Positions 9,408 to 25,134 are shown, counted from the stretch's first letter. The stretch: 64,000 nt of DNA from Synergistales bacterium (GCA_963666205.1 OY762654.1:928001-992000), one strand, 5' to 3'. The notes: generated by a model not told the origin, from the letters alone. Program-made: numbers and translations.

Positions 9408-10943
9408 TCAGGAAAAATCACTTATCTCGCTCCGGACTGCCTGAAGGATCTTTCCCTCTTCCAACAGAACTTGCATTTCCTGTATCAGTGGGTACATGTA
9501 CTGATCTTTTTCAAGAAAGGGAACCCTTGACCGGATAGTATTGAACGCGGCTAATGTACCTTGACCCGGTTTAAGGGGAAAACTGAATTCCAGGGCCTGG
9601 CATGCCGTGAGAAACTCTATGGATAGAACCTTGGACAGGTTCGAGGTAATAGTTTGTGCTTTTCTGGCACTGTAGGCTCCCATGGAAACGTGATCTTCCT
9701 GGTTAGCCGAAGTAGGAATTGAATCCACTGATGAGGGATGAGCCAGGACTTTGTTTTCAGAAACAAGAGCAGCACAAGTATACTGGGGGATCATGAATCC
9801 GCTGTTAAGACCGCTATTCTTCATGAGGAATGGAGGAAGCCCTGAAAGCTTGGCATCTACCAGGCGAGCGACCCTTCTCTCTGAAATATTCGCCAACTCA
9901 GCTGCTGCTATCGCAAAGAAATCCATTGAAAGTGCTATGGGCTGTCCATGAAAATTCCCCCCGCTTAAAGACTCCCCATCTGAAGGGAATATCAGGGGAT
10001 TATCTGTAACAGAATTCATCTCCACCTCAAGAATACCCTTTATATAATTAAAAGCATCCCGGCTGGCTCCGTGAACCTGTGGAACACATCTGAGTGAATA
10101 GGCATCCTGAACTCTATCACGCTTATATTTTTCAATGATCTCACTATTTCTGATCAGTTTTCTTATATTTCCGGCTACTTTACGCTGCCCTTTATAGGGT
10201 CTCAGTTCGTGGGTCCTGTCATCGAAAGCATAGGGAACACCGTGAAGGGCTTCAAGGGATATTGCAGCACTGACATCTGCAAGGGCGGCAAGCTCCTGGA
10301 CATCCGCCAGGGCCAGAATGCTGACCCCTGCCATTGCTGCTGTTCCGTTATTAAGTGCAAGTCCTTCCTTTGGACCTAGTTCAACGGGTTCAAGACCTGC
10401 CTCATTCAAAGCCTTGCGGGCCGGCATTCTCTCTCCATGGAAAAAGACTTCCCCCACTCCGATGAGAGGAAGGGCAAGATGAGAAAGGGGGCAGAGATCC
10501 CCACTTGCACCGACAGATCCCTGGGAAGGAATTACAGGATGAATACCCATATTCAGAAAATTAACAAGCTGTATGACAGGAGAAGGGCTTATCCCGGAAA
10601 ACCCTCTGATAAGACTGTTAAGTCTTAACAACATTATTGAACGTACAACATCTTCGGGATATAGATCCCCGACTCCACAGGCATGGCTTTTAAGAAGATT
10701 TTCCTGAAGTAATCTGCTGTTCCGTGGAGATATGACTACAGAAGCCAGATCACCAAAACCAGTACTGACCCCATACACTATTTTGCCGGAATTTACCCAT
10801 TCCCTGACAATCCCGGAACCTCGTTCAACGAAGGCCAGAGCCGAAGGATCAAGTTCTACCTGACAGTTTTTTCTTGCTACCCTGATAACATCTTCCAGAT
10901 CCAGAGAATGTCCATTTAATAGTACCCTGTCGCTGTCATTCAT
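9408..10943 (-). CDS. hutH: Histidine ammonia-lyase
   Basis: YGVSTGFG, GSVGASGDL (ASG/MIO), KEGLALNNGT, QDAYSLRC, GGNFHG, QEDHVSMG. Confidence 0.96.
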   Translation of the reverse strand: MNDSDRVLLNGHSLDLEDVIRVARKNCQVELDPSALAFVERGSGIVREWVNSGKIVYGVSTGFGDLASVVISPRNSRLLQENLLKSHACGVGDLYPEDVVRSIMLLRLNSLIRGFSGISPSPVIQLVNFLNMGIHPVIPSQGSVGASGDLCPLSHLALPLIGVGEVFFHGERMPARKALNEAGLEPVELGPKEGLALNNGTAAMAGVSILALADVQELAALADVSAAISLEALHGVPYAFDDRTHELRPYKGQRKVAGNIRKLIRNSEIIEKYKRDRVQDAYSLRCVPQVHGASRDAFNYIKGILEVEMNSVTDNPLIFPSDGESLSGGNFHGQPIALSMDFFAIAAAELANISERRVARLVDAKLSGLPPFLMKNSGLNSGFMIPQYTCAALVSENKVLAHPSSVDSIPTSANQEDHVSMGAYSARKAQTITSNLSKVLSIEFLTACQALEFSFPLKPGQGTLAAFNTIRSRVPFLEKDQYMYPLIQEMQVLLEEGKILQAVRSEISDFS

Positions 10944-11233: not shown

Positions 11234-11785
11234 GTGCTATTCCTATTAAGGAGAAGCGTTATTTTAATAAAACAAAAAGGCAAGGAGTGGATTCCCATCA
11301 GGACAGGAAGAACAGGCTTTACCCTGATCGAGACGATGATAGTCATGATAATTATCGGCATCCTGGCCAGCATGTTGCTTCTTGCATCTTTCAGCGCCAC
11401 GACCAGGGCAGAAGCCACCAGACTCGTAAGCAACATGGAAAACCTGAGGGTTGGATGTGTGATGTATTACTGCGACAAAGAGGTATGGCCGGAGGATCTC
11501 TCCCAGCTTGCCGGAACAATGGATATCCAGTACAGTCCCGAAAAATGGGCTTCAATGGGATATGCTCTAACAGATTCAGACTCAGACCTCTGCTGTGTTA
11601 TTTGTGATGTTACAGGAATTTCAGAAGGCATAAGGAACAGTCTGGGCAGGATGGCACAGCAAAGCTGCATATTATATTCGCACACCAACGGAGCGATAAA
11701 CTCTAACCAGGATTTAGACCTGTACGCTGCACAGGATACCGGATACGTACTTATGGTGGTTTATAACAAATCCAGACATCAGTAG
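11234..11785 (+). CDS. Prepilin-type N-terminal cleavage/methylation domain protein (start codon uncertain)
   Basis: RTG|FTLIETMIVMIIIGILA class III signal, then AEATRLVSNMENLR..MYY.D helix. Confidence 0.85.
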   Translation: MLFLLRRSVILIKQKGKEWIPIRTGRTGFTLIETMIVMIIIGILASMLLLASFSATTRAEATRLVSNMENLRVGCVMYYCDKEVWPEDLSQLAGTMDIQYSPEKWASMGYALTDSDSDLCCVICDVTGISEGIRNSLGRMAQQSCILYSHTNGAINSNQDLDLYAAQDTGYVLMVVYNKSRHQ

Positions 11786-11874
11786 ATTCTTCCTTCTGTC
11801 CTGCCTGTCTACTTTAGATGGAACATATCAATAAAAAGTGCTTTCAGATCTTATACCTGGAGGAAAGAACTTTG

Positions 11875-12345
11875 ATGAAAAGGCAGAGAGGGTTCACCCT
11901 TATAGTTATTATTATTGTTATAGCGATCATGGGAATACTGTCTGTCAGACATATGACGGCAGTCTTTCAAGGGGAAGAAGAATCTCCCCGGGAAACAATT
12001 ACCCTTGCTTCCTCTATAAGAATAACGGGGGATCTTGAAGAACTTAAAACCGCAGTAAGCGCTTTCTACGTGGATAAAGGAAGATGGCCCGGGGATATAG
12101 AAGAAATTGCTGGAATTGTTGGCAGAAGGGATCTTTCACAAAGGGGATTCAGTTTATTCAAGACCGACAGCAGCCTGTATATCCTTGCTAAACTCCCTGA
12201 CGATCAACCTGCGCTCAGGGAAATTCTTTTATCGGAGGCTTCGAAAAAGGGACTCATGGGATGCATATCCGCAGAAGAACTTGAAAATTCAGACCCTGCC
12301 CCCTTTGATAGGTCACATCTCTATCTGGTGACAAAGGTACGATAG
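11875..12345 (+). CDS. Second prepilin/pseudopilin-like protein (Glu+5 replaced by Val)
   Basis: MKRQRG|FTLIVIIIVIAIMGIL; DLEELKTAVSAFYVDKGRWP; GGAGG RBS upstream. Confidence 0.8.
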   Translation: MKRQRGFTLIVIIIVIAIMGILSVRHMTAVFQGEEESPRETITLASSIRITGDLEELKTAVSAFYVDKGRWPGDIEEIAGIVGRRDLSQRGFSLFKTDSSLYILAKLPDDQPALREILLSEASKKGLMGCISAEELENSDPAPFDRSHLYLVTKVR

Positions 12346-12622
12346 CTTGAAATACCCATAACTTCCTCCCATGCTTTGCTTATTCGGCTATTACCTGATC
12401 TTGTTTGACATCTTCCCACTCCGGATAAAGGGTATAATAAAATTCAGTATAGATCTTTTCCTTCATTAAACATGAAAATACCTTTTCAATCCAGAAAATA
12501 ACCCGTTCCAGTTCTGAATTACAATGATGCCTGAAAATACTTTTCCATTTAATGTTTAAGCATCGGTAATACTCCCTTCTTTACGTAGAGATAGTATCCT
12601 TAACGAAAAGAGTTGATGCCAA

Positions 12623-13123
12623 TTGCTCAGTCCCACATGGGGTTATCTGACCTTGGATGAGACGATCCACAGGATCAATGATTTTCTGTCCAGGAAAAAA
12701 GAAGAGGACTATCGGTTTATAGTAGGAACGGACTCCCAGGTCTATCCTGACCTCAGGGTCGTTTTTATATCTGCCGTAATAGTGCACCGGATAGGGAAGG
12801 GGGCCATCTATTTTTATGACAGGGAACTGATAATCAAAAGATTCGCCCTTGAGGAAAGGATGTTCACGGAAGTGTCCCTGAGTCTGAAAATGGCTGGTGA
12901 TCTATTGAAGGCCATGGAAAGATCTCCTGAATTTATTTCATCCCATCTTCCCGAGATCGAGATCCATATCGATATTGGTAATAATGGACGAACCAGGGAA
13001 CTTGTCAGTTCGGTTGTTGGAATGGTCAGAGGAAGCGGGTTCGCATGTCAGACCAAACCTGACGCATGTGGAGCGAGTACCGTAGCGGACAGGCATACTA
13101 GAATCCAATCCATGGCCTATTGA
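12623..13123 (+). CDS. Ribonuclease H-like YkuK family protein (DUF458)
   Basis: SPT, IVGTDSQ, VHRIGKG, EIHIDIG.NG.T, ASTVADRHT. Confidence 0.85.
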   Translation: MLSPTWGYLTLDETIHRINDFLSRKKEEDYRFIVGTDSQVYPDLRVVFISAVIVHRIGKGAIYFYDRELIIKRFALEERMFTEVSLSLKMAGDLLKAMERSPEFISSHLPEIEIHIDIGNNGRTRELVSSVVGMVRGSGFACQTKPDACGASTVADRHTRIQSMAY

Positions 13124-13305
13124 GCTCCCTTCTATTTCCATAGAGGATCACCTGCACCACCCTGCACTGAATTATGATTCCCCCTTGCAAAATAACTCGA
13201 CATGGTGTTACATTAGACAATTAGAATGATACTGTAGTATCTTGCCTGTCTAAACCTGGTGACTTTCTGAAACCCTGCAGAAAGGGGCAGGATAATGGTG
13301 GGGAG

Positions 13306-13953
13306 GTGAAGGATTTGTCTTATTCGTCTGAATCAAATCATAATATTCAGCTCTATGACAACTGGTTCAGTAATTATCCCTACGCATATGAGTCTGAACT
13401 AAGTCTTGTCAGAAGTCTACTTACCGATTTTGAGAAAGGATTGGAAATTGGTGTAGGAACGGGCAGATTCGCAGAAAGACTCGGGATAAGGATCGGACTT
13501 GAACCTTCCATTACCATGGCCGAAACAGCAAGAAGCCGGGGAATAAGGGTTGTGGAGGGCACAGCAGAAGCCATACCCTTTGAAAATAACAGCTTTGACT
13601 TTGTACTGATGATAAATGTGATATGTTTTATTTCAGATCTGGAAAAAGCCCTTGCAGAATCCTTAAGAGTTCTTGAACCGGGAGGGTTTCTCATTCTTGG
13701 TTTTATAGATGGGAAAAATCCTTCCGGACAAGCATACCAGGATGTCCGTTTCAAAGGACTTATGTGCAGGGAACCATGGTTCTACTCGGTAAGGGAGATC
13801 TCATACCTGCTCACTAAGACGGGCTTTGAAAACCTGGACTATGCACAGACCATATTTATGGATTTCCATAAAATGACAGAACCGGATAGAGTCAAGAAAG
13901 GATTCGGCGAAGGAGCCGTTATTGCGATACGGGCACAGAAGGAACTCGAATGA
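13306..13953 (+). CDS. Class I SAM-dependent methyltransferase
   Basis: LEIGVGTGRF motif I, AEAIPF..SFD, RVLEPGG. Confidence 0.88.
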   Translation: MKDLSYSSESNHNIQLYDNWFSNYPYAYESELSLVRSLLTDFEKGLEIGVGTGRFAERLGIRIGLEPSITMAETARSRGIRVVEGTAEAIPFENNSFDFVLMINVICFISDLEKALAESLRVLEPGGFLILGFIDGKNPSGQAYQDVRFKGLMCREPWFYSVREISYLLTKTGFENLDYAQTIFMDFHKMTEPDRVKKGFGEGAVIAIRAQKELE

Positions 13954-13998
13954 ATCTATTTATTCAATTGTCACATCCGGACCATAGTCACAAAAGCT

Positions 13999-14043
13999 AA
14001 AAGAGCCGGGAATCTTCCCACGAAAGGATAGTCCGGCTCTTTT
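13999..14043. terminator. Bidirectional terminator
   Basis: aaaagagccgg...ccggctctttt between convergent genes. Confidence 0.7.
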
Positions 14044-14086
14044 ATTATTTACAGGTAGTCCCGGAGAGGCATCTATCGATGAATAT

Positions 14087-15745
14087 TTACCCTTCCCGAT
14101 TAAGCTCACAGATCCTCTGGACAGCGTAGGAAAGCAAACCCGGGACTATTTCCAGACCTGAAGCAAGATCAAGTCTTTCGGTATTTTTGTGGCAATCCTT
14201 ACCTACAGGTCCAATATTCATAACAGGAATATCCAGGCAAAGCAGTTCTTCTACCGGAAGGCTGTATATCTTACCCCAACCCGGAGTATTTTCCACAATT
14301 GGTTCCAGGTCGTCCCTGTCTCCCTGGAAACCAACATAGCTGAGGTCCGTTATACCCTCAAAGACCTCTTCTATGGATATTTCCTGTTCATATCTATCTC
14401 TCGCGAAGTCCACCATCTCTTCTGCTGTTCTGATTATAACCAGTTCCCTCACTGACTTTCTACGATTGACACGATAAGGGTTATAGGGGGGCAGGAACCC
14501 GATAACAGCAAAGGGGCCTTTATAACCTGAAACATCTATCATCCAGTTAAGGATCGCTATACCCCTGTCCCTTTCATCATCCTCTTCGGAAAAGGAAGAA
14601 ATAAGATCATCAAGGGCGGTGAGATAGTTATCTCCCAATTTCCCCCTGGCCTTTTCCTCTATTTCCTGAACGGTGAAAACCTTCGGTTCTATCTCGTAAT
14701 CAGGTAGATTCTTCTGTCCCATCTGCCTGTAACAGCCTGCAGAATTCTTGAGATGAAGAAAAGTTCTTTCAAGGGCAAGGGAAGCAAGGGAATTCATTTC
14801 TTCCATTACCACAGCAGGAGTCTTGGATACGGTCAGACAATTGTAATAGGCAACAGCCCTCTCAGGCATAGTAACAGAATAGGAATCCCGAAGATCCTTG
14901 ATCTTGAGACATGTCTGGGGTGGAAATAATCTGTTCCCGAGCATATCTGAATAGGATGGATTACCCTCAATGAGTATATTGAGGTGGGACGCAATTAGAG
15001 AAGCGCTTATTCCCTCGAAATACTCTCCTACGTGTGATTCCTTTCCTACACAAAGATAAAAGGGCATTATTTTCCCGATTGAACCGGTGTAAATACTTCC
15101 TGAACCCACCTTGTCTATGGTAACAGTAGGCTCCGTATTTATGCAGGCAAGCAGATCAAGACCCATTTCCTCCTGAAAACCGGCTATATACGGAACGGCC
15201 CCCCTCATTCCTGCGGAAGTATTCTCTTCATCCGGTACTGCAAGAAAAAGCAGATTGCCTTTCAGATCCTCTCTTTTCCTGGAAAAATCAGCAATAAGGG
15301 CCATTTCCATGGCTATTCCGGCTTTCATGTCGGCAACACCTCTTCCAAAAAGGTAGTTGCCGCTTTCAAGATCCAGTCTGGCCTCTTCTGAAATAGGCAT
15401 TTCACCTATCCTTCGGGTATACTCTTCGGGATCAAAGGCAATATCCCTGAGAGGACCGCATACGTCAACATCAACAACATCAAAATGACCTGTTACGATA
15501 ACAGTTTTTCTTGTTTCCGGAACAGCCCTGACAAGAGCTGTTACTATATTACGACCCAGGTGATCACCTTCAATAGGGAGTAGTTGAAGATCTTCAGGAT
15601 GATCTCTGAAATAATCAAGTTCAGAGAGCCTGTTGTATATCATTGCTGCAGCCAGATTTTCTCCTTCCGGTGATGCCGAGATACTGGGAACTGAACATAG
15701 TTCAATTAATAGTCTGTAAATACCATCCCTGTTGTATTGGATCAA
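14087..15745 (-). CDS. rocB: M20-family metallohydrolase, arginine utilisation protein RocB-like
   Basis: About 550 aa; GHFDVV, GRGVADMKAG, PDEENTSAGM, GSIGK, ESHVGE, GITDLSY, NIGP.GKDCHK.TERL. Confidence 0.8.
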   Translation of the reverse strand: MIQYNRDGIYRLLIELCSVPSISASPEGENLAAAMIYNRLSELDYFRDHPEDLQLLPIEGDHLGRNIVTALVRAVPETRKTVIVTGHFDVVDVDVCGPLRDIAFDPEEYTRRIGEMPISEEARLDLESGNYLFGRGVADMKAGIAMEMALIADFSRKREDLKGNLLFLAVPDEENTSAGMRGAVPYIAGFQEEMGLDLLACINTEPTVTIDKVGSGSIYTGSIGKIMPFYLCVGKESHVGEYFEGISASLIASHLNILIEGNPSYSDMLGNRLFPPQTCLKIKDLRDSYSVTMPERAVAYYNCLTVSKTPAVVMEEMNSLASLALERTFLHLKNSAGCYRQMGQKNLPDYEIEPKVFTVQEIEEKARGKLGDNYLTALDDLISSFSEEDDERDRGIAILNWMIDVSGYKGPFAVIGFLPPYNPYRVNRRKSVRELVIIRTAEEMVDFARDRYEQEISIEEVFEGITDLSYVGFQGDRDDLEPIVENTPGWGKIYSLPVEELLCLDIPVMNIGPVGKDCHKNTERLDLASGLEIVPGLLSYAVQRICELNREG

Positions 15746-15863
15746 AATATCTCCCTCCACTCAGTTTTTCAGAAAGTAATCGATCTCCATGAAACTGATG
15801 GCAGATCTGGGTCCGATTGTATCATTTTAGAGGTGAGATAGTAGAAGCGGGGTCATCATAAGA

Positions 15864-16910
15864 TCAGATAATACTCATTAAGCCAGGAATGGCCAATTCC
15901 AGGATTGAGATGGAACTCGAATATTCATTCAGATCTATTCTTTCCTGATCAGTATGGTCAAGGTGACTGTCTCCCGGACCATAGGCTGCCATAGGACAGT
16001 TCCATGCCGCAGCAAGGTTGAAATCCGCGGTTCCACCCTTTGCAAGCAACCTTGGTTTGAATCCGGATTTTCTTATTCCCACCCTGAAAGCTCTTATCAC
16101 CGGGTCACTGGTTGGAACGACATGGGCCTTTATCGCAGAGCGGACTTCTGCTTCGACTCCCCACTTTATGGCATATTTCCTGGCTATTTCGATCCATCTA
16201 TCGGGATCTGTGCCAACAGGAAGCCTGATATCAAGATCTATACAGGCAGAACGACCCACATTTTCTCTTCCCTCCATAAAAGCAACTGCTCCACTGGTCC
16301 GTTCTATGATCGGTTTATCGCGGATATCCACCAATTCAATACTTTTCAGAATTTCTGCCGATGCCAGAAGACAACCAGTAAGAGGTCCTGCATCTCCACT
16401 GCGGTGAGCACCCCCATCTTCTCCTTTGATCCACATTCTGAGGCTTCCCCGGTATCCAAGGGTGACTCCGTCATAACCGGAAGGTTCGCCGATAATACAG
16501 GCAGCAGGAGAATGGAGGGGTATTCTGAAACGGGCTCCCATGGAATCTGTTTCCTCTCTTACAGCAGCGATTAAGGTCAACCTCCAGTCTTCAGGCACAT
16601 CTATCTTTCCTCCTGCTACTGCTAACGAACAGAGTGGCCCCTTCGCGTCCACCGATCCTCTACCCCAAAGGACATTCCCATCAAGTTTAAAGAGAGGACC
16701 TCCCGGAACAGTGTCAACGTGACAAAGAAGGACGAGCTCCTTTTCCCCCTTCCCCTTTCCGGCTACAAGATTTCCTGCATCATCAATGAATGCCGAATCC
16801 CAACCAAAACCGGGTAGGGTTTCAGCAAGATATTTGACAGCTTCTCCTTCTTTTCCGCTTATGCTCTGGATACCCACGAGGTTAACCAGAAAAGCTTCAT
16901 TGGTCGTCAT
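15864..16910 (-). CDS. lysK: [LysW]-lysine/[LysW]-ornithine hydrolase
   Basis: HVDTVPG, GRGSVDAKGP, REETDS, GEPS, LGYRG, GTADFN, YGPGDS.LDHT..E; cluster context. Confidence 0.88.
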   Translation of the reverse strand: MTTNEAFLVNLVGIQSISGKEGEAVKYLAETLPGFGWDSAFIDDAGNLVAGKGKGEKELVLLCHVDTVPGGPLFKLDGNVLWGRGSVDAKGPLCSLAVAGGKIDVPEDWRLTLIAAVREETDSMGARFRIPLHSPAACIIGEPSGYDGVTLGYRGSLRMWIKGEDGGAHRSGDAGPLTGCLLASAEILKSIELVDIRDKPIIERTSGAVAFMEGRENVGRSACIDLDIRLPVGTDPDRWIEIARKYAIKWGVEAEVRSAIKAHVVPTSDPVIRAFRVGIRKSGFKPRLLAKGGTADFNLAAAWNCPMAAYGPGDSHLDHTDQERIDLNEYSSSISILELAIPGLMSII

Positions 16911-18030
16911 TCCATATCACTTCCAGAGTTTCTGCAAGTACAGATATGACTGTGTCATAATCTTCTTTTCCAGCAGTAAAGGGAGGCATAAATCGAAGGA
17001 CCATGGGACCTGCCGGAAGGGCCAGGACACCCTTCTGCTGAAGGATGGACACAACCTGGCTGGCCTTGACCGAAAGCTCGATCCCCGTAAGGATACCCTG
17101 TCCCCGAACCTCCCGAATTAATGGGTTTTTTAATTGTTTAAGGGCTGAGCGGAATTTACTTCCGTCTTCTATTGCCTTAGCTGGAAAGTTTTCTTCCAGG
17201 AGAAGATCAAGGGCTGCAAGACCCACTGCTGAAACAAGGGGATTACCACCATATGTTGACCCATGTCCCTTGGCAGGAAAATCGCCAATTTCACCCTTCC
17301 ATATGGTTACTCCTACAGGAAGACCTCCCGCAACACCTTTTGCGAGGCAGACAATGTGTGGATCCATTCCTGTCAATGAACTGGCAAGAACATGTCCACA
17401 GCGCCCCCAACCACACTGGATCTCGTCAGCTATAAGAAGAGATCCATTCTCCCTGCAGGCAAGGTTGATCCGCTGTGCCAGTTCCTTTCCCAGAGAATAC
17501 ACTCCACCCTCTCCCTGGACAGGTTCCACAAAGACTGCCGCAGTATCCTGGTCTATCGAAGCAGGAAGATCTTCCGGGGAAACATGAAGGACTGATGGCA
17601 ATATATCTTTCCAGTATTTTTTATACTGAGGATTAAAGGTCAGAGACAGGGCACCAAGGGTCCTTCCATGGAAACCCCTCCTCAGGGCTATGATCTTTGT
17701 TCTTCCCGGTTTCAAAGCTACTGCAAGCTTGAGGGCCGCTTCGATCGCCTCTGCTCCGCTGTTACCCAGATAAACACGCCCTTCCGGAAGGAGTCCTCCC
17801 AGTCTTAACCTGAATTTCTCCCTGGCAGGTGAATTAAATCCGGCTCCAAGTGTCCAGGGATAATGTGAAGCTCTTTCCAGAGCTTTTACCAGTACTGGAT
17901 GGGAATGTCCGAAAAGAGCCGCTCCATGACCGCACATGAAGTCAATATATTTTCTGCCATCCCTGTCCCAGACAAGAGCCCCCTTCCCACCAGCTATTTC
18001 CAGTTTTCTGGATCCATAAATCAATGACAT
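16897..18030 (-). CDS. lysJ: [LysW]-aminoadipate/glutamate semialdehyde aminotransferase (class III)
   Basis: NSGAEAIE, FHGRTLG, EPVQGEGG, DEIQCG, AKG (PLP Lys), HGSTYGGNP. Confidence 0.88.
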   Translation of the reverse strand: MSLIYGSRKLEIAGGKGALVWDRDGRKYIDFMCGHGAALFGHSHPVLVKALERASHYPWTLGAGFNSPAREKFRLRLGGLLPEGRVYLGNSGAEAIEAALKLAVALKPGRTKIIALRRGFHGRTLGALSLTFNPQYKKYWKDILPSVLHVSPEDLPASIDQDTAAVFVEPVQGEGGVYSLGKELAQRINLACRENGSLLIADEIQCGWGRCGHVLASSLTGMDPHIVCLAKGVAGGLPVGVTIWKGEIGDFPAKGHGSTYGGNPLVSAVGLAALDLLLEENFPAKAIEDGSKFRSALKQLKNPLIREVRGQGILTGIELSVKASQVVSILQQKGVLALPAGPMVLRFMPPFTAGKEDYDTVISVLAETLEVIWNDDQ

Positions 18031-18860
18031 AACATGGTTCCTCCTCCCGAAAGGGCTTTTTCTAAAGGTTCTTCTTCTCTGCTGTCAGCTATAAACACCC
18101 TCTGCACTTTCTGCTCCAGAGCTTCCCTGGCAGCCAGAAGTTTTCTTTTCATGTTCCCTTCGGCACATTTCTCCAGTCTGTCCCACTGGGAAAGATCGGC
18201 CTTCCGGATCAGGCTGGCACTGTCAGACGGGTCTGAAAGCAGACCGGGAACGTTGCTCAGAATAACAAGTACATCCCCTTGCAGAGCTCCTGCTGCTGCC
18301 GCTGCCAATCTGTCGCCATCTACGTTAAGGGCGCTCTTATCCTCTAGAGACAAAGCAATGGGAGGCAGAATGGGAAGGGCTCCCATAGACCAGGCCTTCC
18401 TTACCCACTCGGGGTTGAAAGACATAACTTTCCCGCTGTAATTACCTCTGAGTATCCTTATACGCCCATTTTCCACAGACCTGAGAACATCCTTGCGTTT
18501 TCCGAAAGCTGATGGGAAATACTGCGGGTACAGAGGCAATACCCATAGTCCAAGGAGAGCCGCTGCCGAGACAAGGTCTATGGAAAACTTTGTACAGGCG
18601 AATTCAAAGAGCTCCCGTTCCTTTTCTCCAACGTAGCGGCTGCGGAACCCGCTCGGGCTTATCACATAATCGGGTTCCAGGCCGGAAGCGATACAGATAT
18701 CCTCCATGGATCCGCTTGCTCCATGAACAAGAAGCCATTTTTCTCCCCGTTCTGTTCGTACAGCAAGATCTTTCAATAATGGCATCACATTGTTACCCCT
18801 TGCTCCGCCGATCTTCACGACACCCGTTCCGAGAGTTTTCATTTTTTCAGACCCTTTCAT
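18021..18860 (-). CDS. lysZ: [LysW]-aminoadipate/glutamate kinase (alternative start 18842)
   Basis: VVKIGG, VHGAS, SPSGFRSRY, LNVDGDRLAA, MKRKL. Confidence 0.9.
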   Translation of the reverse strand: MKGSEKMKTLGTGVVKIGGARGNNVMPLLKDLAVRTERGEKWLLVHGASGSMEDICIASGLEPDYVISPSGFRSRYVGEKERELFEFACTKFSIDLVSAAALLGLWVLPLYPQYFPSAFGKRKDVLRSVENGRIRILRGNYSGKVMSFNPEWVRKAWSMGALPILPPIALSLEDKSALNVDGDRLAAAAAGALQGDVLVILSNVPGLLSDPSDSASLIRKADLSQWDRLEKCAEGNMKRKLLAAREALEQKVQRVFIADSREEEPLEKALSGGGTMLCH

Positions 18861-18875
18861 TGTCAGTCATTTCCA

Positions 18876-19916
18876 TCAGGCAGGATAAAGGGGTCTCATT
18901 TCCAGACCACTTGTCTCTTCCAGACCAAGCATAAGGTTGGCACACTGAAGAGCGGAACCGGAAGCTCCCTTCATCAGATTATCAATGGCAGAAACAACGA
19001 TAAGTCTGTAACCGTCTTCATGGAGAGAAAATCCGGTAAGAACCCTGTTACTTCCCATTACAAGCCTCGGATCCGGCAGTCTGAGGTGGGAAGGCCTGGC
19101 AGGACAAAGATTCATAAAGGGTTCACCCTGGTAATATTTCCTGTAGATCTTCCACAGTTCTGATTCCTTCATCTTTCGTGCAAGTCTTACCTGGGCCAGC
19201 ATCTGTACACCTCTGACAATCCCGGCAGCCGTCATTGTCATTGTAAATAACTCTTCTGGAGTTTTCAGTTCCTGGATGATCTCTGCAAGGTGACGGTGCC
19301 TGAAGGGTTCATAAACTCTCAATGTTCTGCTTCGATAAGGATGATGGCTGCCCGTATTAGGGTTGGATCCTCCTTCGGAGGATCCAACCCTGAGTTCAAG
19401 CCTTGCATCCTCCAGCAGCCCTTCACTGGCAAGAGGAAAAAGACCAAGGATTGAACATGAAGCATTACATCCAACCCCGCTTACCAGGTCTGCCCCACGG
19501 ATCTCTTCCCTGTGGACTTCCGGCAGACCATAAACACTTCTTTCAAGGAGGTGGGGAGCACCATGGATTGAACCGTACCACTTTACATAGTCTCCGGGGT
19601 TGGAAAGCCTAACATCTGCAGAAAGATCTACAACTTTAACTTTTTTCTGAAGATATCGTTCTATTACCGGCCAGGAACTTCCATGGGGTAAAGCCAGAAA
19701 CACAAGATGACTGTCCCTCCCCAAGGCATCCTCGGGTGCGATGAATGTCGCCGAAGGAAAATCCTGACGAAGATGGGGATGTACATGCCAGACAGGCTGG
19801 CCAGCTCTGCTCCTGGAAACCGCTCCTTCCAGTTCTAATTCCGGATGACCGGCAAGAAGCCGCAAGAGTTCCCCTCCAGCCATTCCATTTGCACCCCATA
19901 CGATGATCCTGAACAT
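18876..19916 (-). CDS. lysY: [LysW]-aminoadipyl/glutamyl-phosphate reductase (ArgC family)
   Basis: FLALPHG, DLSAD, YGLPE, GCNA (catalytic Cys), GSSEGG, SHHPYR, IDNLMKGA. Confidence 0.9.
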   Translation of the reverse strand: MFRIIVWGANGMAGGELLRLLAGHPELELEGAVSRSRAGQPVWHVHPHLRQDFPSATFIAPEDALGRDSHLVFLALPHGSSWPVIERYLQKKVKVVDLSADVRLSNPGDYVKWYGSIHGAPHLLERSVYGLPEVHREEIRGADLVSGVGCNASCSILGLFPLASEGLLEDARLELRVGSSEGGSNPNTGSHHPYRSRTLRVYEPFRHRHLAEIIQELKTPEELFTMTMTAAGIVRGVQMLAQVRLARKMKESELWKIYRKYYQGEPFMNLCPARPSHLRLPDPRLVMGSNRVLTGFSLHEDGYRLIVVSAIDNLMKGASGSALQCANLMLGLEETSGLEMRPLYPA

Positions 19917-19971
19917 AATAGCAACCTCCTTGCAGTTAAATAGATCTTAAAGAACTATTGAATCCTCCGTT

Positions 19972-20101
19972 AAAAAATAAAACCCACATGGCCTCTGGCC
20001 AGTGGGTTAAAGGGATATTTTCAGTTTTGCCATAAAAGACCTCTTAAAGATCATCCCTTCAACCATAAAGAAATAGAGAACCTCCTCGCCTGAGGCTCTC
20101 T
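19972..20101 (-). promoter_or_regulatory. Putative attenuator/leader between lysX and lysY
   Basis: Terminator AACCCAC-TGGCC-AGA-GGCCA-T-GTGGGTT followed by TTATTTTTT; overlapping alternative stem GGTTGAAGGGAT/ATCCCTTTAACC; short Lys/Arg-containing ORF ending at the stem. Confidence 0.45.
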
Positions 20102-20173
20102 TCCCGTCCTGCTCTGCACTTTGATCTCGTGGAATAGAATCGCTGTTTATATAACAAGATAAAGTCCTTTCCT

Positions 20174-21013
20174 TTAATCCCTGGAGACCAGAGACCATGC
20201 ATGTTCGACTATCAGTTCAGGAAGGTCGACACCCGTAGTTTCGATAGAGCTTCTGAATTCGGGCTGGCCGTTGACTTCATTCAACAACCATCCATCCCGG
20301 GTCATAAAGAGGTCTACTGCAAGTATATCTCCACCAATCGCTCCATGAACCTGTTTCAGGATATTTTCAAGGGTACTATCCAGAGAAAACCCTTCCGCCC
20401 TGGCACCCCTTGCAGTATTGGTTATCCAGTGTTCACTGCATCGGCGAATAGCGGTTACAGGCTTTCCTCCAATAACTGTCGCCCTTAGATCCCATCCATC
20501 TTTTTCTATATACTTCTGAATAAAAAAGACCTGGTGCTGTGGTCCCATGTAAGATTTATGTTCAACAAGAGCTTCAACCGCATCCCTGTCGTTCATCTTG
20601 GCCAGTAACCTGCCCCAGCTTCCCACCGGCGGCTTGAATACAACAGGATAACCAAGTTGTTCAGAAGCCAGAACAGCTTCATCGGGGGAAAAGGCAACAC
20701 GATATGGAGGCTGGGATATCCCAGCATCATCAAGGACTGCAGCTGTAGCGATCTTGTCTCCACAGAGAGCTACGACTGAAGAAGGATTGACTGTTCGGAT
20801 CCCCTTAGACTCCAGAAGCTGACAGATGGCCTGGTTCTGAGTCTGGCTTACCACCCGGCCTACTGCAACATCCCCGGGAGATATATCCACATCAGGCCAA
20901 ATCAGACTTCTGACATCGATAAATTCAAAGGGAATTGCCAGCTTCTCAGCTGCTTTAAAAAGCTGTTTTTCCTCTGTTCTGAGCCTGGAGTAGAAAAACT
21001 TCAGGGAAGACAT
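20174..21013 (-). CDS. lysX: RimK/ATP-grasp family [LysW]-aminoadipate/glutamate ligase
   Basis: R.EEK, CGDK, KPPVGSWGRLL, HWITNTARG, NEVN; ATG at 21013 directly after the lysW stop. Confidence 0.92.
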   Translation of the reverse strand: MSSLKFFYSRLRTEEKQLFKAAEKLAIPFEFIDVRSLIWPDVDISPGDVAVGRVVSQTQNQAICQLLESKGIRTVNPSSVVALCGDKIATAAVLDDAGISQPPYRVAFSPDEAVLASEQLGYPVVFKPPVGSWGRLLAKMNDRDAVEALVEHKSYMGPQHQVFFIQKYIEKDGWDLRATVIGGKPVTAIRRCSEHWITNTARGARAEGFSLDSTLENILKQVHGAIGGDILAVDLFMTRDGWLLNEVNGQPEFRSSIETTGVDLPELIVEHAWSLVSRD

Positions 21014-21014
21014 C

Positions 21015-21182
21015 TTATTCTCCCCAATCCTCCTGAACTTCCGGCGCTTCTTCAACTGTCAGGGGATCCATGCTGACCAGCTCCAGTTCAGTTCCACAAT
21101 CAGGACATAACAAAAGTTCTCCCTCCATAACATCTTCCGGCATGGTAACGATACCTTCACATACAACACAATTGACAGTCAT
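21015..21182 (-). CDS. lysW: Amino-group carrier protein LysW (55 aa, absent from the ORF track)
   Basis: Hand translation MTVNCVVCEGIVTMPEDVMEGELLLCPDCGTELELVSMDPLTVEEAPEVQEDWGE*: two CxxC pairs, acidic, EDWGE terminus; AGGAGG RBS. Confidence 0.96.
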   Translation of the reverse strand: MTVNCVVCEGIVTMPEDVMEGELLLCPDCGTELELVSMDPLTVEEAPEVQEDWGE

Positions 21183-21214
21183 CTGTAATTCCTCCTAAAA
21201 AAATGTATGGGGGG

Positions 21215-21244
21215 ATTGTAAACTACAGTATATGATTTTGTCAA
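21215..21244 (-). promoter_or_regulatory. Sigma70-type promoter of lysW
   Basis: TTGACA-N18-TACAAT on the minus strand. Confidence 0.55.
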
Positions 21245-21338
21245 GTGGTGTACTTTTGTTTATTTTTATGAAATAAAAAAGGGAGGGAACCATGTTCACT
21301 TACCACGATCCCCCCCTATAACGGTCCCATAAATAAAT

Positions 21339-22970
21339 TTATCCGTGTCTCTGATCCTGTCCTCTCACTTTTGCGACATCAATAACAATAAATGAGAGGT
21401 TGTGGGCATGATCTCCTATTCTTTCCAGATTGCTCAGTATATCAATAAAGACAACCCCGGACGAAGGATGGCAATCTCCCACGTTAAGGCGTTTGATGTG
21501 ACGAAGCCGCAGTTCCTTTTCCATGGTATCTATTTTACTTTCAAGAATGTCTATTACCTCCCTGGCCTTCTCCACATCTTCACCCGCTATGGCTTCCAGG
21601 CTAAGTTCCAAAGCCAGATTGGTCGTACTGAACATCTCTTCAAATTCCTCCATAGCCTTTTCAGAAAAGGGGAGCCTGTTTTCCCTCTTGTAATCATAGA
21701 GCTCAATAAGATTCTGGGCATGGTCACCTATCCTTTCAAGATCTCCCAATCCGTTAATGTATGAGGATAGCACTATAGACAGATCCTGGGAAAGGCTTTT
21801 CTGCCAGAGTTCCGAGGAATACTGGGCAACCTTATGGGTAAGTTCGTTCACTATCTTCTCTGTCTGATTAACCTGTTCTATCATGTGAGCATCATCCAGC
21901 GTAAAGGCATTATGAACATCCATCATCATCTGACCTGCAAGATCTCCGATCCTCAGTATCTCCTGTCTCACAGCATCAACTGCAGCCGCAGGAGAGGCCT
22001 CGATTAGCCTGACATCAAGGAACTGTGGACCCGTGTATGAGATAGTCTCCTTTGACGGGATGACAAGCTGGATGATCTTCACGAAAAGGGATGTAAAGGG
22101 CAGAAAAAGAAGGGTGTTCGTAACGTTGAAAAGAGTATGGGCATTTGCAAGCTGCCTGGCGATATCCCCGGAGGTCATAATAACGGCACTCCTGAAGAGA
22201 GGAAGGATCAGCAGGAATATAACAACACCTATGACATTGAACAGCACATGTGCCGCGGCAGCCTGTTTGGCGCTACGGTTAGACCCCATACATGCTATAA
22301 CAGCTGTTATGGTGGTACCGATGTTATCTCCAAGGAGGATTGGAATTGCCGCATCCAGGCCGAAAAGTCCCTGGGTCGCCATGGCAATGGTCAGACCTAC
22401 CGTAGCAGAACTGGACTGTACAAGCATGGTCAGACCTGCTCCTGCCATCACACCAAGGAGCGGGTTATGGCTGAAAGCAAGGAATATATCCTGTCTTCCC
22501 CTGAGAAACTTCATGGAATCTCCCATATATTGCATCCCCAGAAAAAGAAGACCGAAGCCTACCAGTCCATTCCCAAGATATTTCTGCTTCTTGGTCCTTC
22601 CGAAAACAGAAAGCATCATACCAACAGCTATTATGGGAAGTGCATAATGTTTGATCTTGAAAGCAATTAGCTGGGCCGTTACTGTGGTGCCTATATTAGC
22701 TCCCATGATAACCCCGACTGCCTGTTTGAGGGTCATAAGCCCTGCATGCACGAAACTGACGCTCATTACCGTCGTAGCACTGCTGCTCTGTATCAGCACC
22801 GTGACAAGAGTTCCAACCAGTACTCCCTTGACAGGGGTGCTGGTAAGTGAAGATATAAGCTGACGCAGTCTGTCCCCGGCCAGATCCTGAAGGGATTCTC
22901 CCATAAGCTTGATAGCAAAGAGGAAAAGCCCTATTCCTCCAAGAAGTTGAAATATCGTCCCGCTGGACAT
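21339..22970 (-). CDS. Na/Pi cotransporter family protein with PhoU domains
   Basis: Two QSSS repeats, GANIGTT, GDNIGTT, LERIGDHA twice. Confidence 0.92.
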   Translation of the reverse strand: MSSGTIFQLLGGIGLFLFAIKLMGESLQDLAGDRLRQLISSLTSTPVKGVLVGTLVTVLIQSSSATTVMSVSFVHAGLMTLKQAVGVIMGANIGTTVTAQLIAFKIKHYALPIIAVGMMLSVFGRTKKQKYLGNGLVGFGLLFLGMQYMGDSMKFLRGRQDIFLAFSHNPLLGVMAGAGLTMLVQSSSATVGLTIAMATQGLFGLDAAIPILLGDNIGTTITAVIACMGSNRSAKQAAAAHVLFNVIGVVIFLLILPLFRSAVIMTSGDIARQLANAHTLFNVTNTLLFLPFTSLFVKIIQLVIPSKETISYTGPQFLDVRLIEASPAAAVDAVRQEILRIGDLAGQMMMDVHNAFTLDDAHMIEQVNQTEKIVNELTHKVAQYSSELWQKSLSQDLSIVLSSYINGLGDLERIGDHAQNLIELYDYKRENRLPFSEKAMEEFEEMFSTTNLALELSLEAIAGEDVEKAREVIDILESKIDTMEKELRLRHIKRLNVGDCHPSSGVVFIDILSNLERIGDHAHNLSFIVIDVAKVRGQDQRHG

Positions 22971-23203
22971 GTATTATTCCTCCCAAACCGGCATTTTAAA
23001 AAAACATCAGGTCATACATAAATATCTTTTTTAAAAACTTATGGTTTACGAATAGATTTTCAATACATTATTATCTCAAAACATTATTTTTTGTTATTAA
23101 ACCACGGAAAAGATAAACACAGTCATTTTAGCATTGATAGATCCCCTCTGAAGATGGAAATTCGCAGTCTTCAGAAAGTATAAGTCAGAAACTGTTCAGT
23201 TAT

Positions 23204-23260
23204 TATTCTATAAAGAGGGGACCGGAAACTCTCGTTTTCCGCCCCCCTCTTTATAGAATA
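23204..23260. terminator. Long hairpin/terminator between the two Na/Pi genes
   Basis: tattctataaagagggg...cccctctttatagaata inverted repeat. Confidence 0.65.
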
Positions 23261-23287
23261 CTTATAATAAATCTCTGACAGCTATTC

Positions 23288-24928
23288 CTATTTTTTCAGT
23301 TTGGGAATCCTCTGAATATTTCTCACACCTACCACGTCAAGAACTATATATGAAAGATTATGGGCATGATCCCCTATCCTTTCAAGGTTGCTCAGAATAT
23401 CTATGAACACGACTCCTGAAGATGGTTGGCACTTCCCCGTATTGAGTCGCTTGATATGGCTCTTGCGGAGCATTTTTTCCTTCCTGTCTATCTCTTTCTC
23501 AAGTACATCGATAACTTCTCTGGCCTTGGACTGGTTTTCTTCCGCCATGGCCTCGATACATAGATCGACAGCTCTTGAAGTGGTATTGAACATATCTTCA
23601 AATTCCTCCATACCCTTTTGAGAAAAAGAAAGCTTATGTTCAAACTTGTATTCAAAGAGTTCTATAAGATTCTGTGCATGGTCGCCTATCCTCTCGATAT
23701 CACCGAGTCCGTTGACATAAGAAGAAAGAACTATGGAGAGTTCTTCCGATAGACTCTTCTGGAAAAGCTCTGATGCATAAGAAGCGATAGTATGGGTTGT
23801 CTCATTCACTATCTTTTCTGTTCTGTTGACCTGATTTATCATGTGATAATCATTTTTTTCGAAGGCATCGAATACATAGGACATCATATTCTGGACCAGA
23901 CCGCCAAGGCGAATCAGCTCTTTCCTGACTGCATCCACACCTGCAGCCGGAGAAGCATTCACAAGTCTCCTGTCAAGGTATTGAGGACCTGTAAATACGA
24001 CCTCACCCCGGGAAGGTACCACTTTTTCTATGAGCCGGGAAAAAGGCCCTATAAAGGGAAGCAGGATAAGGGTATTTGTAATGTTAAAGAGAGTATGGGC
24101 ATTGGCCAGCTGACGGGCTATATCATGGGAAGTTAAAACAACTACTGATCTGAACAATGGAAGAATGGTCATAAAGATTATGGTTCCGATAACCTTGAAG
24201 AATACCTGCGAAACTGCCGCCTGTTTAGCTGTTCGTCCTAATCCCAGTGAAGCAATGACGGCTGTTATCGTTGTACCTATATTATCTCCGAAAAGTATAG
24301 GGATGGCTCCGTCAATATTGATCAGTCCCTGGGAAGCCATTACCATGGTCAGACCGACAGTGGCAGAACTTGACTGGACAAGCATGGTAAGTCCCGTACC
24401 GGCAAGAACACCAAGAAAGGGGTTGTCACTGAAGGCCAGAAATATATCCTGGCGATCCTTCAGAAAAGCCATAGCGCCCTCCATGTGTATCATTCCCAGA
24501 AAGAGGAGGGCAAATCCGACCATTCCGTTTCCCAGGTATTTCTGCCTCTTGTTTCTTCCAAAGACTGCAAAGATCATCCCTATTCCTACAAGGGGAAGTG
24601 CAAAATGTTTGATCTTGAAGGCAATGAGCTGTGCTGTGATCGTAGTACCTATTGCGGCTCCCATTATTACGCTTATTGCCTGTTTTAATCCCATGAGGCC
24701 GGCATGAACAAAACTGACTGCCATGACTGAAGTCGCACTGCTGCTTTGTATTACCATGGTAACTAAAGTTCCAACGAGTATTCCCTTTACAGGTGTACTC
24801 GTAAGTGAAGCTATCAACTGTCGAAGTCTGTCTCCTGCCAGGTCCTGCAGGGAATCACCCATCAACTTTATGCCATAAAGGAAAAGACCTACTCCTCCGA
24901 GGAGTTGAAAGGCCATTGCTGTATTCAT
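23288..24928 (-). CDS. Na/Pi cotransporter family protein, tandem paralogue
   Basis: Same QSSS and PhoU architecture; long identical blocks shared with the neighbour; GGAGG RBS before ATG 24928. Confidence 0.92.
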   Translation of the reverse strand: MNTAMAFQLLGGVGLFLYGIKLMGDSLQDLAGDRLRQLIASLTSTPVKGILVGTLVTMVIQSSSATSVMAVSFVHAGLMGLKQAISVIMGAAIGTTITAQLIAFKIKHFALPLVGIGMIFAVFGRNKRQKYLGNGMVGFALLFLGMIHMEGAMAFLKDRQDIFLAFSDNPFLGVLAGTGLTMLVQSSSATVGLTMVMASQGLINIDGAIPILFGDNIGTTITAVIASLGLGRTAKQAAVSQVFFKVIGTIIFMTILPLFRSVVVLTSHDIARQLANAHTLFNITNTLILLPFIGPFSRLIEKVVPSRGEVVFTGPQYLDRRLVNASPAAGVDAVRKELIRLGGLVQNMMSYVFDAFEKNDYHMINQVNRTEKIVNETTHTIASYASELFQKSLSEELSIVLSSYVNGLGDIERIGDHAQNLIELFEYKFEHKLSFSQKGMEEFEDMFNTTSRAVDLCIEAMAEENQSKAREVIDVLEKEIDRKEKMLRKSHIKRLNTGKCQPSSGVVFIDILSNLERIGDHAHNLSYIVLDVVGVRNIQRIPKLKK

Positions 24929-25134
24929 TGGCAAACCTCCAGAATTGAAACAGGGTTCTTCTAATACTGTGGAATAACTGCCGGATTCTCAAACCGAATC
25001 ATCATACCATATGAATCGCCATGGGTAGACCATAAAAGAGAAATTATTTCAACATATGGGGAAAAATTCTTTCCTTGTCAACTCTTCTGGAACAGAAATC
25101 CAGAGTCTGTCCGGAGGAACCTGCAAGATGAGTA

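Follow-up and report, generated by a model that had tools for sequence, protein, structure and literature searches.

A LysW carrier-protein gene cluster of a Synergistales bacterium as a candidate bacterial route from glutamate to ornithine

Among bacteria, the amino-group carrier protein LysW is known from the lysine biosynthesis of Thermus and Deinococcus, and a carrier of the LysW type is also used for secondary metabolites in Streptomyces. To our knowledge, the only demonstrations of LysW-dependent ornithine and arginine synthesis come from archaea (Sulfolobus, Thermococcus and haloarchaea). Here we describe a cluster of six genes, lysW-lysX-lysY-lysZ-lysJ-lysK, and a neighbouring gene for a RocB-like M20 metallohydrolase, found in a 64,000-nucleotide stretch of DNA (the window, G000:C1:928001-992000) from a Synergistales bacterium whose genome is a single contig of 2.95 Mb scored 100% complete (GCA_963666205.1, OY762654.1). 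We consider it probable (about 0.6) that the cluster is a LysW-dependent pathway that converts glutamate to ornithine and serves arginine, not lysine, synthesis, a reading in which the substrate of the ligase is what we infer from the genes present, their motifs, their phyletic patterns and the T-box regulation observed.

The ligases that load the carrier have been sorted by short motifs, F-I-T-NS in the aminoadipate enzyme of Thermus, I-Y-V-GF in ArgX and Y-I-T-NA in dual enzymes, and the exchange F182I alone lets the Thermus LysX gain glutamate loading while its aminoadipate activity is retained (PMC12998189; this paper, PMC10433800 and PMC10404663 are cited throughout for parts of their text). 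All aminoadipate-accepting enzymes named in those parts have N at position 258, and the two glutamate-specific ligases quoted there, with GF and Ala-Leu, do not (PMC12998189; PMC10433800). Haloarchaea use ArgW and ArgX for arginine and the diaminopimelate (DAP) pathway for lysine (PMC10433800). Their ArgX is glutamate-specific with a motif ending in Ala-Leu and without I-Y-V-GF, so that the latter signature is not universal to ArgX. A literature search, which did not cover supplementary Table S1 of PMC12998189, did not turn up any paper on LysW-dependent arginine synthesis in a bacterium. In the GapMind papers LysW appears solely in connection with archaeal or Thermus enzymes, and PMC5584792 uses the name "lysW" for an unrelated transporter.

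The ligase and its genomic setting

The carrier gene lysW (21015-21182, on the minus strand like the whole cluster) codes for a zinc ribbon protein of 55 aa with cysteines at positions 5, 8, 26 and 29 and an EDWGE C-terminus (PF21344, 60.8 bits; TIGR01206, 54.4 vs a cutoff of 53.2). The lysX open reading frame (ORF) spans 20174-21055, and its probable start is the ATG at 21013, directly past the lysW stop, which gives an ATP-grasp ligase of 279 aa (20174-21013; TIGR02144, 282.3 vs 275.6) with the GSWGR motif in the sequence VGSWGR. The general marks of a LysW pathway are therefore all found here, namely an EDWGE carrier and a GSWGR ligase clustered with a kinase, a reductase, an aminotransferase and an M20 hydrolase.

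The residues that matter for specificity were located by alignment to Thermus LysX (3vpd) and column mapping, with F182, I192, T203, N258 and S259 as the reference residues. In the window LysX, positions 182, 192, 203, 258 and 259 read T-I-T-SS. This mapping is valid, since the same columns read exactly F-I-T-NS in 26 relatives. The Thermus aminoadipate signature F-I-T-NS and the Sulfolobus ArgX signature I-Y-V-GF are both absent from the window LysX. Three features point indirectly to glutamate: position 258 is not N, the residue at 182 is small and the gene falls in a clade that pairs with F-type copies (those with F at position 182). We propose on these grounds that the window LysX may be a glutamate-LysW ligase. 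Its relatives in public databases are largely of the same kind, 103 of the best 120 having non-F motifs, including those of named Acetomicrobium species, whose LysX proteins are 55-56% identical to that of the window. Where these 120 relatives carry names, all are lysine-related ("lysine biosynthesis protein LysX", "[LysW]--L-2-aminoadipate ligase"). The named relatives of both LysX and the M20 protein are Synergistota, and in view of the modest identity to Acetomicrobium LysX we place the organism in that phylum but not in the genus. Two LysX relatives, P0126 (A-I-T-N-S) and P0130 (T-I-T-S-S), are 70% and 63% identical to the window LysX; the longest contig on record is 38,879 nt for each, and they may share a contig, as a further kind of ligase pair.

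The initial annotation of this DNA had suggested a bacterial LysW-dependent ornithine/arginine route and a check of the rest of the genome for separate arginine and lysine genes. No match to ArgJ was found genome-wide, LysY is the sole ArgC-family gene over the cutoff, and the AA_kinase family has seven members, namely LysZ, proB, three aspartate kinases, pyrH and arcC (carbamate kinase), with no ArgB among them and LysZ as the only ArgB-like member. There is hence no separate argJ/B/C set, and LysW and the RimK-family ligase are each encoded once in the genome. The later steps of arginine synthesis are present, with ornithine carbamoyltransferase (OTC; TIGR00658, 442 bits), ArgH (TIGR00838, 545 bits) and ArgG. 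The absence of the N-acetylglutamate route from what we could find, together with the presence of OTC, ArgG and ArgH, is the pattern of an ArgX/ArgW-type system. For lysine, the genome has an operon with asd, dapA, dapB, dapH (an N-acetyltransferase), aspartate kinase and a class-III aminotransferase, and these genes, with lysA (456.8 bits), are the DAP-route genes that we have identified; as described below, both loci stand under Lys T-boxes. The suggested route is in these respects upheld; its link to rocB and the claimed lack of supply genes, taken genome-wide, are not (see below). The sole OTC gene adjoins genes for carbamate kinase and a LAT-family (lysine 6-transaminase family) aminotransferase (L045 5201-8617; G000:C1:1910201-1913617). 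This unit looks like a catabolic citrulline/ornithine arrangement, though arginine synthesis would need the same OTC.

A way to see how the ligase types are distributed is to compare genomes of the phylum, for which we have searched the same 121 each time. LysX was found in 53 of them, one further weak RimK match having been dropped. F-type copies only are present in 28 genomes (26 with F-I-T-NS, two with F-V-T-NS) and non-F copies only in 17 (T-I-T-SS, T-I-T-NS, L-I-T-GS and V-M-T-GS), while the remaining eight (G060, G086, G002, G005, G008, G010, G057 and G094) have two copies, in every case one F-type and one non-F. The two-ligase genomes have one LysW and one shared set of LysZ, LysY, LysJ and LysK. 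In a quick IQ-TREE run the 21 non-F copies found in the main order, with the second copies of two-ligase genomes among them, all fell into one clade (SH-aLRT 98). An ArgC-family match over the cutoff occurs in 55 genomes, exactly one in each. All 17 non-F-only genomes have dapH and none of the 28 F-only or the eight two-ligase genomes does; lysA is present in 15, 16 and four of these, respectively, and 16 of the 18 LysX genomes that lack it have an F-type copy. We dropped argG as a phyletic marker because it is non-discriminating. The sister genus (G080) has the same synteny, a non-F LysX and, at the DAP operon, a Lys T-box. The B-type IsoDH, the candidate aminoadipate-supply gene discussed below, is missing from it, and for this reason we favour glutamate as the cluster's original and principal substrate.

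Six T-box matches were found in the genome, two in tandem before asd, one at lysA, one at argG and two at other operons. Those at asd and lysA scored 65-77 bits, under the Rfam gathering score, with E-values of 1e-12 to 1e-15, and have the specifier AAA (Lys); the argGH T-box scored 119.9 bits and has AGA (Arg), all specifiers being read by eye from the printed alignments. They lie at L047 6848-7368 (tandem Lys, asd-dapA-dapB-dapH-aspartate kinase), L035 2837-3078 (Lys, lysA) and L046 6706-6936 (Arg, argGH). A search of window positions 12000-24000 against Rfam, with E up to 1, gave chance-level microRNA and snoRNA matches only, and no riboswitch or T-box. A LysW route supplying lysine would be expected to answer to lysine, but in this genome the Lys T-boxes precede lysA and the DAP genes, and no T-box was found at the LysW cluster. 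Among relatives, Lys T-boxes precede lysW in 5/9 F-type loci (G022, G081, G028, G060 and G086, with specifiers read in the first four) and in 0/17 non-F loci. In G060 the Lys T-box stands between the extra non-F ligase and lysW-lysX(F). The F-type genomes searched whole (G081, G022, G028 and G060) have three T-boxes, at argG, at the LysW cluster and at a further operon with genes resembling asd and aspartate kinase; in two non-F genomes, likewise searched in full, the DAP operon and lysA carry T-boxes instead. This placement of Lys T-boxes indicates that the F-type LysW cluster is a lysine route and that DAP is the lysine route in non-F-only genomes.

In the proposed route the LysX-family ligase would couple glutamate through its amino group to the Glu at the C-terminus of LysW, the free gamma-carboxyl would be phosphorylated by LysZ and reduced to the semialdehyde by LysY, LysJ would transaminate the product and LysK would free ornithine. 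From ornithine, OTC, ArgG and ArgH, whose genes lie in other parts of the genome, would make arginine, and lysine would have a separate origin in the DAP pathway's acetylase branch; the RocB-like M20 enzyme may feed the same ornithine pool. For the phylum as a whole, we lean, with some reserve, towards a reading in which one LysW/LysZ/LysY/LysJ/LysK set was switched between lysine and arginine by ligase exchange, F-type LysX being the form under Lys T-box control and the non-F copies a so far unrecognised glutamate-type clade (T/L/I/V182, no Asn258). As part of this reading, the window genome and cultured Acetomicrobium species would have retained only the non-F ligase.

Aminoadipate supply and alternative readings

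The initial annotation found no gene for homocitrate synthase, homoaconitase or homoisocitrate dehydrogenase in the window, and our genome-wide searches agree: none of the matches to PF00682 (9), PF00330 (11 in 6 genes) or PF00180 (2) lies within 928001-992000. Its wider description of a cluster without aminoadipate-supply genes holds for the window only. Elsewhere in the genome there are four short HMGL-type synthases, all under the nifV/LysS cutoffs, and, besides leuC, five HacA/LeuC-type large-subunit genes, two of them confirmed with adjacent small subunits. One non-LeuB Iso_dh gene, of ambiguous type, closes a double HacAB-Iso_dh arrangement within a conserved cluster of citE, citF, citG, a 184-aa gene, HacA, HacB, HacA, HacB and Iso_dh (L044 222-12924; G000:C1:10222-22924), which in this genome is adjoined by an NhaC-type transporter gene and then by a LAT-family aminotransferase gene, the second in the genome. 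The Iso_dh genes of the phylum fall into four groups, LeuB, true NADP-isocitrate dehydrogenase, a 360-aa type and the "B" type to which this gene belongs. B-type genes occur in 27/28 F-only, 6/8 two-ligase and 1/17 non-F-only genomes and in 7/68 genomes without LysX; within one family (f2) they occur in 19/20 LysX genomes vs 3/15 without. Because of this co-occurrence with LysX, f2 included, the B-type cluster may be an aminoadipate supply. It could also be a citrate-to-2-oxoglutarate module or a reversed catabolic route. The nearest counterparts of the copy in the window genome belong to a distant class (71-74% identity). The best NCBIfam match of its product is the homoisocitrate dehydrogenase model, at 339 bits and under the cutoff of 540, and a PDB sequence search gave near-equal scores with NAD-isocitrate dehydrogenases (249 bits) and Thermus homoisocitrate dehydrogenase (238 bits). 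No T-box was found near the cluster in three F-type genomes (G081, G022 and G004).

These supply genes weigh against glutamate as the substrate. The B-type IsoDH is a companion of F-type LysX (33/36 genomes) and its sole non-F-only holder is the very genome of the window, which, judging by its gene content, could form aminoadipate via HacAB-IsoDH and one of the short HMGL-type synthases. Further points on the same side concern the ligase, the arginine and lysine genes and the sampling. T-I-T-SS fits no characterised type, the haloarchaeal work found that the motif alone does not set specificity (PMC10433800), and the ligase is closer overall to Thermus LysX (3vpd, 237.6 bits) than to Sulfurisphaera ArgX (3vpb, 134.6 bits). 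As lysA is present in 16 F-only genomes, it does not exclude an aminoadipate route. With argG in 110 of the 121 genomes, many of them without LysX or ArgC, arginine genes alone need no de novo ornithine, and the proB gene makes a path to ornithine through ProB/ProA and an aminotransferase possible. The LysW cluster has no Arg T-box, and no other arginine-linked signal was found there. Finally, the 121 genomes are related to each other and are not independent samples.

The cluster may, as the initial annotation also proposed, serve aminoadipate salvage. Another alternative is a dual-purpose route as in Thermococcus, in which the single non-F LysX charges LysW with glutamate as well as aminoadipate, LysZ, LysY, LysJ and LysK process the two, and the cluster provides ornithine plus a second supply of lysine, the aminoadipate for which would come from HacAB-HacAB-IsoDH (14-19 kb in the genome) and a short HMGL-type synthase. 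The window ligase does share I192 and T203 with the LysX and dual types, Thermus LysX with F182I holds aminoadipate activity as it gains glutamate (PMC12998189), and LysZ, LysY, LysJ and LysK take both chain lengths, since two-ligase genomes share one set. The B-type cluster is moreover 59-78% identical to those of F-type genomes, and the homoisocitrate dehydrogenase model is the best NCBIfam match of its IsoDH. However, the B cluster is missing from the other 16 non-F-only genomes, which implies that the ancestral task of the non-F clusters needs no aminoadipate. In addition, the B cluster stands next to citrate lyase genes and apart from the LysW cluster, it is without a T-box in the three F-type genomes, and its IsoDH is equally close to NAD-isocitrate dehydrogenases. 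Position 258 of the ligase is S and not the N of the named aminoadipate-accepting enzymes, and the Lys T-boxes of the window genome are on DAP genes only. On balance, we regard a dual-purpose route as unlikely.

Far less probable still is a cluster of the Thermus type that makes lysine only, from aminoadipate, in an organism that takes up arginine or ornithine. It would agree with the LysX, LysZ and LysK lysine models being the best NCBIfam matches, with the lysine-type public names of all named relatives, with Thermus LysX as the closest solved structure, with the candidate supply genes and with the many relatives that hold argG without any ArgC-type gene. Against it, the ligase does not have F-I-T-NS and belongs to a clade that coexists with F-type copies, the DAP route under Lys T-box control (asd, dapA, dapB, dapH and lysA) would make the cluster redundant for lysine, the F-type clusters of relatives carry Lys T-boxes and the window cluster has none, and the sister genus, with the same cluster, lacks a B-type IsoDH. 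The glutamate-to-ornithine route is the reading that we retain.

The locus and its RocB-like neighbour

ORF calls and family scans placed all seven genes on the minus strand, in the one orientation that the initial annotation had noted, with the M20 gene beginning 118 nt beyond lysK. The best promoter-type site of the region lies ahead of lysW (21215-21244, minus strand) and is of the sigma-70 type, with TTGACA, 18 nt and TACAAT (11/12 matches); the stretch TTGACAA..ATCATATACT.TAGTTTACAAT is kept in locus L050 and in the sister-genus locus L102. A shared operator was considered and rejected, as the conserved lysW promoter word gave no regulon genome-wide; there is also a resemblance to the OTC upstream region. 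Downstream of lysX come lysY (18876-19916; a [LysW]-acyl-phosphate reductase of the ArgC family, TIGR01850, 334.5), lysZ (18021-18860; an ArgB-like [LysW]-amino acid kinase, NF010659, 219.6, slightly below the cutoff of 223), lysJ (16897-18030; a class-III aminotransferase, PF00202, with 287-305 bits for LysJ models, under their cutoffs) and lysK (15864-16910; an M20 hydrolase predicted to release the product from LysW, TIGR01902, 258.7 vs 163.1, and NF003367, 293.6, under the cutoff of 363). The gene order W-X-Y-Z-J-K was found in 19/19 cluster loci of relatives examined and in L050; the twentieth relative locus examined, L104, is a solitary second ligase and stands outside this count.

The lysX-lysY spacer (19917-20173, 257 nt, minus strand) contains a terminator-like hairpin with a T-run at about 19970-20010, followed by the ribosome-binding site of lysY. 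Long hairpin-bearing spacers recur at this place in the sister genus, in family f1 as well as most F-type clusters (L095-L101, L114 and L115, besides the window). The window spacer had no Rfam match, and RNAalifold on 16 long lysX-lysY spacers gave no consensus other than the terminator. The spacer may be an undescribed leader. The lysX-lysY spacers of family f2 have a common conserved word (AAGTGCAAGCGCGGAATAAAGCG...), also without an Rfam match. Contigs from RNA libraries, which are metatranscriptomes of a close relative in which DNA carry-over is possible, cover the cluster in parts; some span lysX to lysY, and one spans 15729-16317, from inside lysK across the whole following spacer and up to the start of the M20 gene.

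The M20 ORF covers 14087-15760, and its probable start is the TTG at 15745, preceded by GGAGGGAG; the resulting 552 aa are the length of the closest public relative. PF01546 is the sole family match of the product (14087-15745). The label RocB-like given in the initial annotation seems justified, with RocB-type homology over the full length (~550 aa) through 34-36% identity to Planococcus and Planomicrobium loci over residues 17-543 and through relatives that JGI and NCBI call "arginine utilization protein RocB"; the protein is also 95% identical to one in a metagenome-assembled genome labelled Acetomicrobium hydrogeniformans. A PDB sequence search gave weak DapE matches only, the ESM Atlas gave generic M20 clusters only, and no roc-type neighbours were seen beside the gene.

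The adjacency of lysK and rocB, in contrast, is not conserved. The M20 family is found in 72/121 genomes regardless of LysX, with up to four copies per genome, and it adjoins the LysX cluster in 2/45 genomes that hold both, that of the window and G109, from another family, in which it lies just upstream of lysW. The order in the sister genus is NMO - MscS - NaPi - lysWXYZJK - the orthologue of window gene 12623-13123, with no M20 and no methyltransferase gene at the syntenic site. The M20 and methyltransferase genes are thus an insertion/deletion difference, as lysK there directly adjoins the orthologue of 12623-13123. The link to RocB is refuted as a conserved feature by the very measure that the initial annotation had set, namely the conservation of this adjacency. 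From these comparisons, the M20 gene is probably a lineage-specific neighbour and not a conserved part of the pathway.

Its place as a working seventh member, co-transcribed with lysK and yielding ornithine from citrulline or from a LysW- or acyl-linked precursor, appears doubtful. Consistent with such a role are the common strand, the 118-nt spacer (15746-15863) in which no terminator was called, the RNA contig over that spacer (weak, as a contig only and possibly DNA), the second adjacency in G109, differently arranged but likewise beside a non-F cluster, and the citrullinase activity of the B. subtilis RocB, which is Mn-dependent and gives ornithine (PMC10404663). The rarity of the adjacency, the difference from the sister genus, the multi-copy family found irrespective of LysX, the mere 34-36% identity to the Bacillales loci and an extended -10-like box in the spacer (TGATACAAT, 15816-15824, read by eye) all argue the other way. 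A looser ornithine-related link is possible, as the two independent adjacencies on the non-F side exceed a rough chance estimate. A role as N-acetyl-DAP deacetylase was rejected for lack of co-occurrence with dapH: in genus g6 dapH is present in 21/21 genomes and the M20 family in 0/21, and in families f6 to f8 M20 is present and dapH absent. In genus g25 a RocB-like M20 paralogue adjoins lysA on the same strand (G071:C3:712223-715493; G055:C1:46296-49563; G091:C25:195044-198458).

The cluster is flanked upstream by two Na/Pi-cotransporter genes and downstream by a converging methyltransferase gene, which has in common with M20 a terminator-like hairpin (13998-14043, minus strand). The upstream genes are a tandem of Na/Pi-cotransporter-PhoU genes (21339-22970 and 23288-24934), of which the sister genus has one. 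The window also holds a gene of the aromatic amino acid lyase family (PF00221, 663.7 bits) and a prepilin N-methylation motif in two small genes (region at 9408-10943 and 11234-12345).

Significance and comparison with known systems

If the proposed route is real, it would be the first LysW-dependent arginine route in bacteria, and a whole bacterial phylum would make arginine without N-acetylglutamate. Many public labels of Synergistota proteins ("LysX", "lysine biosynthesis") would then be wrong, and pathway predictors would mistakenly assign these organisms arginine auxotrophy and two routes to lysine. The pairs of F and non-F ligases, with Lys T-boxes moving between DAP and LysW genes, would amount to a natural experiment on substrate change in carrier-protein pathways. 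The reading is directly testable in cultured Acetomicrobium strains.

The ArgW/ArgX system of Natrinema gari J7-2 is similar in several respects: it has one EDWGE carrier and one GSWGR ligase, accompanied by genes for a kinase, a reductase, an aminotransferase and a hydrolase, the acetyl route is lacking, lysine comes from DAP and the ligase motif is unlike that of Sulfolobus ArgX (PMC10433800). Its function has been proven by knockouts and an in vitro assay, whereas that of the present cluster is predicted. The present organism is, on the other hand, a bacterium, with the order W-X-Y-Z-J-K, with argF, argG and argH outside the cluster and with T-I-T-SS in a ligase whose haloarchaeal counterpart ends in Ala-Leu. 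Thermus thermophilus shares the bacterial setting and the same six gene families, and its LysX (3vpd/1uc8) is the closest solved relative at 237.6 bits. However, that LysX has F-I-T-NS and is aminoadipate-specific in an organism that also has the canonical acetyl route to arginine (PMC12998189), while the present genome combines a T-I-T-SS ligase with a DAP route and lacks the acetyl route.

The M20 protein resembles RocB of Bacillus subtilis, an enzyme that hydrolyses N-carbamoyl-L-ornithine (PMC10404663), in its size of ~550 aa and in the names of its relatives, but differs from it in having no roc operon context, in belonging to a multi-copy family in the phylum and in its 34-36% identity to the Bacillales loci. 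The eight two-ligase relatives in the phylum recall Sulfolobus, where LysX and ArgX act on one LysW (PMC12998189; 3vpb). Unlike Sulfolobus, the genome of the window retains only the non-F ligase, and the non-F motifs of the phylum (T-I-T-SS, L-I-T-GS, I/V-M-T-GS and L-V-T-RS) differ from the I-Y-V-GF of the archaeal enzyme.

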